From the IMG/VR virus record IMGVR_UViG_2711768065_000005: a stretch of DNA of 38,499 bases. The stretch is one strand, 5' to 3'. Below, in pieces: positions 33,692 through 34,295 of this stretch. Each line of letters starts with the position of its first letter. Position 1 is the first letter of the stretch. The notes under the pieces are model-generated. The model did no database searches. It had not been told where the DNA came from and saw only the letters and a list, made by a program, of their open reading frames with translations. Position numbers and translations under genes: made by a program. Source of the stretch: a virus. Taxonomy: Duplodnaviria > Heunggongvirae > Uroviricota > Caudoviricetes.

Positions 33692-33749
33692 TTTCTGGTG
33701 ACGTTTGGCGGTATCAGTTTTACTCCGTGACTGCTCTGCCGCCGTTTTT
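33692..33749 (+). ncRNA. dicF: DicF small RNA (antisense regulator of ftsZ and other mRNAs)
   Basis: tttctggtgacgtttggcggtatcagttttactccgtgactgctctgccgccgttttt matches my recollection of the DicF sequence, including the 3' GC stem (ggcgg/ccgcc) plus U-tract; located between ydfB-like ORF and dicB as in Qin. Confidence 0.55.
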
Positions 33750-33918
33750 AAAGTGAATTTTGTGATGCGGTGAATGCGGCTAAGCGCACGCGGAACAGTT
33801 AAAACCAAAAACAGTGTTATGGGTGGATTCTCTGTATCCGGCGTTAATTGTTAACTGGTTAACGTCACCTGGAGGCACCAGGCACTGCATCACAAAATTC
33901 ATTGTTGAGGACGCGATA

Positions 33919-34107
33919 ATGAAAACGTTATTACCAAACGTTAATACGTCTGAAGGTTGTTTTGAAATTGGTGTCACTATCAGTAACCCTGTATTTACTG
34001 AAGATGCCATTAACAAGAGAAAACAAGAACGGGAGCTATTAAATAAAATATGCATTGTTTCAATGCTGGCTCGTTTACGTCTGATGCCAAAAGGATGTGC
34101 ACAATGA
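33919..34107 (+). CDS. dicB: Cell division inhibitor DicB
   Basis: 62 aa MKTLLPNVNTSEGCFEIGVTISNPVFTEDAINKRKQERELLNKICIVSMLARLRLMPKGCAQ. Confidence 0.85.
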   Translation: MKTLLPNVNTSEGCFEIGVTISNPVFTEDAINKRKQERELLNKICIVSMLARLRLMPKGCAQ

Positions 34108-34295
34108 ATTCAGCATTTGCGCTTGTTCTGACAGTTTTTCTTGTTTCCGGAGAGCCAGTTGATATTGCAGTCAGTGTTCACAGGACAATGCAGGAGTGTA
34201 TGACTGCAGCAACCGAACAGAAAATTCCCGGTAACTGTTACCCGGTCGATAAAGTTATTCACCAGTATAATATCGAAATCCCGGCAGGTCTTTAA
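34104..34295 (+). CDS. ydfD: YdfD-like small membrane (lysis) protein
   Basis: 63 aa MNSAFALVLTVFLVSGEPVDIAVSVHRTMQECMTAATEQKIPGNCYPVDKVIHQYNIEIPAGL; start overlaps dicB stop (ATGA). Confidence 0.8.
   Translation: MNSAFALVLTVFLVSGEPVDIAVSVHRTMQECMTAATEQKIPGNCYPVDKVIHQYNIEIPAGL

Follow-up and report, generated by a model that had tools for sequence, protein, structure and literature searches.

The dicBF operon of the cryptic prophage Qin in Escherichia coli K-12 is transcribed from dicBp, which is repressed by DicA and can be derepressed by Rem, by spontaneous DicA/DicC switching, or by urea or heat; the small RNA DicF is processed from the polycistronic transcript, with RNase III yielding a 190-nt form and RNase E a 53-nt form (PMC10448788). 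The 3′ end of a further form, of 72 nt, is made by RNase III, and DicF pairs with ftsZ mRNA by its 3′ part and with xylR mRNA by its 5′ part, regions that were defined by mutation; direct pairing with the ftsZ, xylR, and pykA mRNAs was established in K-12 with compensatory mutations (PMC5069750). Both DicF and DicB are published as inhibitors of cell division (PMC10448788). Of the proteins encoded downstream, DicB targets MinC to the septum (PMC10448788) and, through MinC, blocks phages that depend on the inner-membrane proteins ManYZ (PMC6832061, PMC10448788). YdfD causes lysis and binds IspG, and inhibition of IspG has been proposed as the mechanism (PMC8835842).

We analyzed a 38,499-nt stretch of viral DNA (IMG/VR record IMGVR_UViG_2711768065_000005; hereafter the window), in which a reading of the letters alone (the original prediction) had placed DicF, DicB, and a YdfD-like membrane protein in an operon on the repressor side. 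Our results confirm the observation and support its interpretation, and the module is one already known: with a probability of about 95%, it is the dicBF host-takeover unit of a Qin-type lambdoid prophage, carried here by a phage genome that is apparently complete. None of the results spoke against this identification. The features discussed below are collected in Table 1.

Table 1. Features of the dicBF region and related elements in the window
Feature	Position	Strand	Basis
P22-Cro-family gene, divergent from repressor	31795-32049	-	Pfam
DicA-type repressor, 135 aa, immunity type different from K-12 DicA	32100..32507	+	NCBIfam NF007257
Operator-like palindromes	32572-32585, 32608-32621		Palindrome search
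Candidate PL-like promoter, counterpart of K-12 dicBp	32595..32623	+	Promoter scan, palindromes, position; function predicted
ydfA (DUF1391), first operon gene	32700..32855	+	Pfam PF07151, 95 bits
Minus-strand gene, 106 aa, three hydrophobic segments	33094-33414	-	ORF and homologs
DicF precursor part upstream of DicF	33555..33691	+	190-nt precursor; 5′ end estimated from the distance to the DicF 3′ end
DicF (53-nt form)	33692..33744	+	Rfam RF00039; match to K-12 dicF (b1574)
Structured DicF–dicB spacer (dicB leader)	33745..33918	+	RNAalifold
dicB, 62-aa cell-division inhibitor	33919..34107	+	Pfam PF05358, NCBIfam NF049927
ydfD, 63-aa lysis protein	34104..34295	+	Pfam PF07358
rem, antirepressor	26598..26849	-	98% identical to K-12 Rem
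hok/sok-type element	27216-27390	-	Rfam
cspA-type 5′ leader	23270-23662	-	Rfam
cspA-type 5′ leader	19996-20412	-	Rfam

RESULTS

The window resembles Qin along its length

Comparison of the window with Qin revealed long blocks of 93 to 99% identity that cover the lysis genes, cspB/cspF, the Q-like gene ydfT, ydfU, rem, hokD, and dicC, with further blocks at ydfA, from dicF through ydfE, and at intQ. In RefSeq genomes with identical DNA, the flanks are rspB and rspA, i.e., the Qin site of K-12. The isolated phage HannyBb (PP925841.1) shared 99.2% identity with the window over positions 31700-37000, the module included. Judged by these sequence matches, the window represents a full-length Qin relative adjoining rspB. 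Of 5426 complete E. coli genomes, 4750 (~88%) had a match to the 1 kb spanning the module (33400-34400), at a median of 2 places each and at 10 at most.

Several other elements of the window deserve mention. A 595-aa DUF4209 protein, encoded at 27896-29683 (+) where K-12 Qin carries relBE, ydfV, and flxA, matched the PADLOC candidate defence family PDC-S39 (E = 8e-103). The hok/sok-type element (Rfam sok, 116 bits) corresponds to the hokD region of Qin, and the two cspA-type 5′ leaders (158.8 and 109.8 bits) to its cspB/cspI regions.

In most automatic annotations of the exact sequence, dicF is missing, and dicB and ydfD are named in some cases only. The small RNA is absent from the annotation of NZ_CP023142.1 and from the record of phage HannyBb; in the latter, dicB is called as a 97-aa ORF from an upstream GTG (window position 33814), and both dicB and ydfD are labelled hypothetical.

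DicF matches its Rfam family and the K-12 small RNA

Two checks proposed along with the original prediction were alignment to the Rfam DicF family and prediction of RNA structure. The RF00039 covariance model matched positions 33693-33744 (+) with 72.5 bits, passing the gathering score of 48, and the match covered the entire model (positions 1-52 of 52; E = 2.9e-14 over the whole window). Compared to the 53-nt dicF of MG1655 (b1574), 52 of 53 bases were the same, the last base being G here and C in K-12. DicF lies before dicB as predicted, in an untranslated stretch 5′ of that gene within the early-left operon of a lambdoid prophage. The predicted span, 33692..33749, was right at its start, while its end adds the GUUUUU tail of the terminator hairpin to the 53-nt form, which stops at 33744.

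Folding likewise recovered the DicF architecture, i.e., a single-stranded 5′ part, a stem-loop at 33707-33743, and a U-run at 33745-33749, with an unremarkable energy (z = -1.96). This terminator was not reported by our promoter/terminator scan, whose limit is exceeded by the 11-nt loop. Because nucleotides 1 to 52 are the same as in K-12, the regions that pair with ftsZ (3′ part) and xylR (5′ part) are intact. When full-length DicF was paired with the K-12 ftsZ leader (-60 to +40) by RNAduplex, the energy was -38.9 kcal/mol versus -33.3 ± 4.1 kcal/mol for shuffled sequences, and 44 of 500 DicF shuffles did as well; since this method ignores intramolecular structure, the comparison is uninformative, and we therefore relied on the sequence identity with the RNA tested in K-12.

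Near-identity to K-12 resumes at ~33544, just 5′ of the precursor segment, and the 140 nt upstream of DicF were 81 to 100% identical across 86 unique phage-contig sequences. The fold of the 190-nt precursor region (33540-33752) had a z score of -0.96, with minimum-energy and centroid structures that disagree, and it left the 5′ RNase III site without a reliable structure.

DicB and YdfD are near-copies of the K-12 proteins

The 62-aa product predicted for dicB matched Pfam PF05358 with 136.8 bits (cut-off, 27) and NCBIfam NF049927, “cell division inhibition protein DicB,” with 132.8 bits (cut-off, 100), and it was 100% identical to K-12 DicB over all 62 residues. The original prediction had described it as a MinC-dependent division inhibitor; this activity is published for K-12 (PMC10448788), and from identity to the characterized protein it would be expected here as well. 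The 63-aa YdfD-like protein was also upheld, by a match of 90 bits to PF07358/DUF1482 (cut-off, 25) and by identity to K-12 YdfD at 61 of 63 residues, the two differences being at position 6 (A here, V in K-12) and position 53 (Y here, D in K-12); RefSeq genomes with identical DNA label it “lysis protein YdfD.” The lysis that the prediction attributed to YdfD agrees with published work (PMC8835842), and so does superinfection resistance via altered transport function, which has been described for DicB and ManYZ (PMC6832061, PMC10448788). The ATG of ydfD overlaps the stop codon of dicB (ATGA at 34104-34107).

The module lies in an operon behind a candidate PL-like promoter

The repressor matched the NCBIfam model “transcriptional repressor DicA” (NF007257) with 239 bits and also Pfam HTH_3, and it was 57% identical to K-12 DicA. 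The attributes of a DicA-type (Gifsy-like, uncleavable) repressor were found together: a 135-aa HTH protein, the match to the DicA model, a divergent Cro-like gene, and an antirepressor gene on the prophage.

Between the repressor gene and ydfA lies a sigma-70-like promoter candidate (TTGACG-17-TAAATT). Near-identity to K-12 resumes just past this candidate, where the transcript should start, and positions 32629-32954, the ydfA region, were 99.7% identical to K-12. The palindrome TTGAGTTTTCTCAA had its three best window-wide matches at 32036, in the cro/repressor intergenic region, and at 32572 and 32608, on both sides of the -35 box. Such placing is the layout expected of operators, to which the repressor may bind. 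Counts of promoter-like sequences and terminators in the simple promoter scan were no higher than in shuffled sequence.

Past the promoter candidate, ydfA, dicF, dicB, ydfD, the exonuclease gene, xis, and int follow in this order, all on the plus strand. The gene layout (repressor, PL-like promoter, ydfA, then dicF) bears out the location of the module in a repressor-side operon. It also supports the predicted expression on derepression, which has been shown in K-12 (PMC10448788) and which would extend to the heteroimmune repressor here. Because this repressor is just 57% like DicA and the operators differ from those of K-12, we only infer its control of the PL-like promoter and, likewise, the action of Rem on it. 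An exact LexA box (CTGT-N8-ACAG), sought as an SOS tie for Rem or the operon, occurs nowhere in the window. We also observed that Rem is 98% K-12-like while the repressor is only 57% DicA-like; one Rem type may serve several immunity types.

A probable membrane-protein gene lies on the minus strand within the operon

Homology to K-12 breaks at ~32954-33475, the ydfB/ydfC segment, and the minus-strand 106-aa ORF sits in this gap. Some 60 homologs of its product, with 34 to 99% identity, were found in Escherichia, Yersinia, Herminiimonas, Reinekea, and metagenomes, and these share the invariant motifs D-x-WYK and G-x-GEW-x-NHP. Relatives are also present in phage mEp390 and, as gp33, in Burkholderia phage Bcep176. 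The convergent orientation with respect to a DicA-like repressor gene recurs for the homolog in Yersinia prophages. Searches of PADLOC, NCBIfam, Pfam, and PHROGs gave no match to the 106-aa protein.

In the RefSeq, HannyBb, and mEp390 records, the opposite strand is annotated instead. The RefSeq/PGAP call is a plus-strand ORF of 191 aa (32857-33432), of which only the first ~34 residues are ydfB-like. We doubt this ORF, given that distant homologs exist for the protein encoded opposite to it; as an operon gene it is probably not real beyond its ydfB-like residues, and the minus-strand gene is probably the real one. Such an antisense gene may affect transcription through to dicF in ways unstudied in K-12.

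The DicF–dicB spacer contains a conserved long-range helix

A consensus fold was computed with RNAalifold on 47 unique spacers, together with pair counts. The 174-nt spacer contains a conserved long-range helix of ~20 bp, in which 33752-33772 are paired with 33883-33903; inside it are three hairpins, at 33776-33791, 33840-33866, and 33868-33882. The ribosome-binding site of dicB, GAGGA, lies at 33909-33913. The helix showed wobble intermediates and, at 33768/33887, a single compensatory change from C-G to U-A. Since the published 3′ end of 72-nt DicF maps to ~33763, within the 5′ arm, the helix is most likely an RNase III substrate that parts DicF from the dicB mRNA.

The same region (33742-33951, +) was matched over its full length by the Rfam model STnc100 (RF02076), with a score of 34.5 bits, which does not reach the gathering score of 47. 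The STnc100 small RNAs are carried by prophages and were recently linked to PasD (bioRxiv 10.64898/2026.05.13.724894). Spacers behind DicF in other phage contigs reached 37.9 to 46.0 bits against the gathering score of 47. The spacer resembles STnc100 and, because 34.5 bits falls below that score, is not a member by Rfam's criterion.

DicF is followed by dicB and ydfD in most phage contigs

Viral contigs were scanned for the DicF core, yielding at least 120 loci, 105 of them with enough downstream sequence. Homologs of dicB and ydfD stood behind DicF in 101 of these 105 (among the at least 120 matches listed); compared to the proteins of the window, DicB was 55 to 100% and YdfD 44 to 100% identical among the DicF loci listed. 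Among the matches listed, the distance from DicF to dicB was 227 nt in 92 of 101 loci, and the 140 nt upstream, DicF, and the spacer were 81 to 100% identical throughout, more conserved than the proteins.

At four of the loci listed (L034, L036, L056, and L102; IMG/VR), DicF-plus-spacer is followed by other cargo, not dicB-ydfD. A 73- to 77-aa “MIAHHFGTDEIPRQC...” protein is encoded there in L034, L036, and L056. L056 also has a 283-aa ORF with IsrK and C4 RNA matches inside, and L102 carries a Phd/RelE-like pair and then IsrK and C4.

DISCUSSION

Proposed course of events

The molecular activities invoked here all come from published K-12 work, to which the present analysis adds the identity and order of the parts, candidates for promoter and operators, and a conserved helix in the spacer. 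We propose that the DicA-type repressor would hold the PL-like promoter at ~32595-32623 and keep the module silent. Upon inactivation of the repressor (in K-12 by the antirepressor Rem, by spontaneous DicA/DicC switching, or by stress), a single long transcript would cover ydfA, the DicF precursor, dicB, ydfD, the exonuclease gene, xis, and int. [quoted passage not shown] Together with Hfq, DicF would pair with ftsZ mRNA at the ribosome-binding site and also with the xylR, pykA, and manX mRNAs, whereas DicB would bind MinC and direct it to the septum, blocking formation of the FtsZ ring. Through MinC, DicB would also inhibit ManYZ, which lambda-like phages need for DNA entry. YdfD would be translationally coupled to DicB and, when overproduced, would cause lysis, attributed in published work to inhibition of IspG.

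Alternative readings

It is very improbable that the DicF-like sequence is only a terminator or processing signal and no trans-acting small RNA. Its 3′ part is indeed a hairpin followed by a U-run, like an intrinsic terminator, and its folding energy is unexceptional (z = -1.96); however, the sequence matches a characterized regulator at 52 of 53 bases and keeps both pairing regions, with the sole change at the last base, outside the stem, and in K-12 pairing with ftsZ, xylR, and pykA has been shown by compensatory mutations (PMC5069750). A different use of the same parts has better prospects, at somewhat under even odds: the module may serve mainly the lytic cycle, halting division and rewiring sugar uptake as the phage grows, as an early-left host shut-off comparable to lambda Kil and not as a host-beneficial device for superinfection exclusion. 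Consistent with this, the module stands among early-left genes, before the exonuclease gene, xis, and int, in a genome 99% like that of an isolated phage; it is silent under repression in K-12 (PMC10448788); and it is kept in 101 of 105 DicF phage contigs (among the matches listed). On the other hand, transient or subpopulation expression that gives resistance to lambda has been reported in K-12 (PMC6832061, PMC10448788), and no experiment with an intact phage was found in the dicBF literature cited here. A lytic role is compatible with the identification of the module as a dicBF host-takeover unit, and the two do not exclude each other.

More doubtful than a lytic role, and in our estimate rather unlikely, is the possibility that DicF, the ~140-nt precursor upstream, and the STnc100-like spacer form a conserved, portable RNA-processing cassette that precedes exchangeable toxic cargo. 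If this were true, lambdoid phages would place the cassette before cargo that is usually dicB-ydfD and occasionally the 73- to 77-aa protein, an antirepressor-like gene close to IsrK and C4, or a pair resembling a toxin-antitoxin system, and the role of the long RNase III helix would be to uncouple small RNA and cargo mRNA. The “small RNAs” STnc100 and PasD would then be relatives of the dicB leader, and in this phage an additional level of control could come from the antisense membrane-protein gene.

Significance

Work on this dicBF host-takeover unit goes back to the 1980s, and the present, ordinary copy adds little to that knowledge. Its value is one of annotation: by this module the window can be recognized as a full-length Qin-type phage, and a “cryptic prophage” module is seen to be carried by apparently intact phages as well. 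The leader helix, the kinship to STnc100, the exchangeable cargo, and the antisense gene could be useful to workers on prophage small RNAs and on prophage gene expression.

Comparison with known systems

Compared to the K-12 Qin dicBF operon (ydfABC-dicF-dicB-ydfDE; b1571-b1577), the locus retains dicF (52/53), DicB (100%), YdfD (61/63), and Rem (98%), together with the same ydfA, a DicF–dicB spacer and ~150 nt upstream of DicF that are ~99% identical, and the same chromosomal site by rspB. It departs from Qin in its control region, where the operators are unlike those of K-12 and the repressor is 57% identical to DicA, and in the ydfB/ydfC segment (~32954-33475), which is replaced by sequence with the minus-strand membrane-protein gene, so that the two operons are not collinear. 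Downstream, the 823-aa exonuclease is encoded by an intact gene, whose K-12 counterpart is the IS2-disrupted pseudogene ydfE, and xis and int are intact as well; elsewhere, the DUF4209 gene replaces relBE, ydfV, and flxA.

With respect to STnc100/PasD, the spacer matches the outer long-range helix and two inner hairpins of the model; in contrast to that small RNA family, the element here is the dicB leader within a polycistronic transcript. The order dicB, ydfD, exonuclease gene also holds in the lambdoid phages and prophages mEp460, Tritos, and PPompW and in Stx2 phages. The HannyBb record differs in annotation, its genes being called hypothetical and its dicB start being placed upstream. Lambda Kil is a small toxic division inhibitor of the PL operon that, like the module, is expressed on derepression; it acts on FtsZ through ZipA, not MinC, and has no small RNA partner. 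The module is thus likened to Kil by function and operon position, not by sequence.
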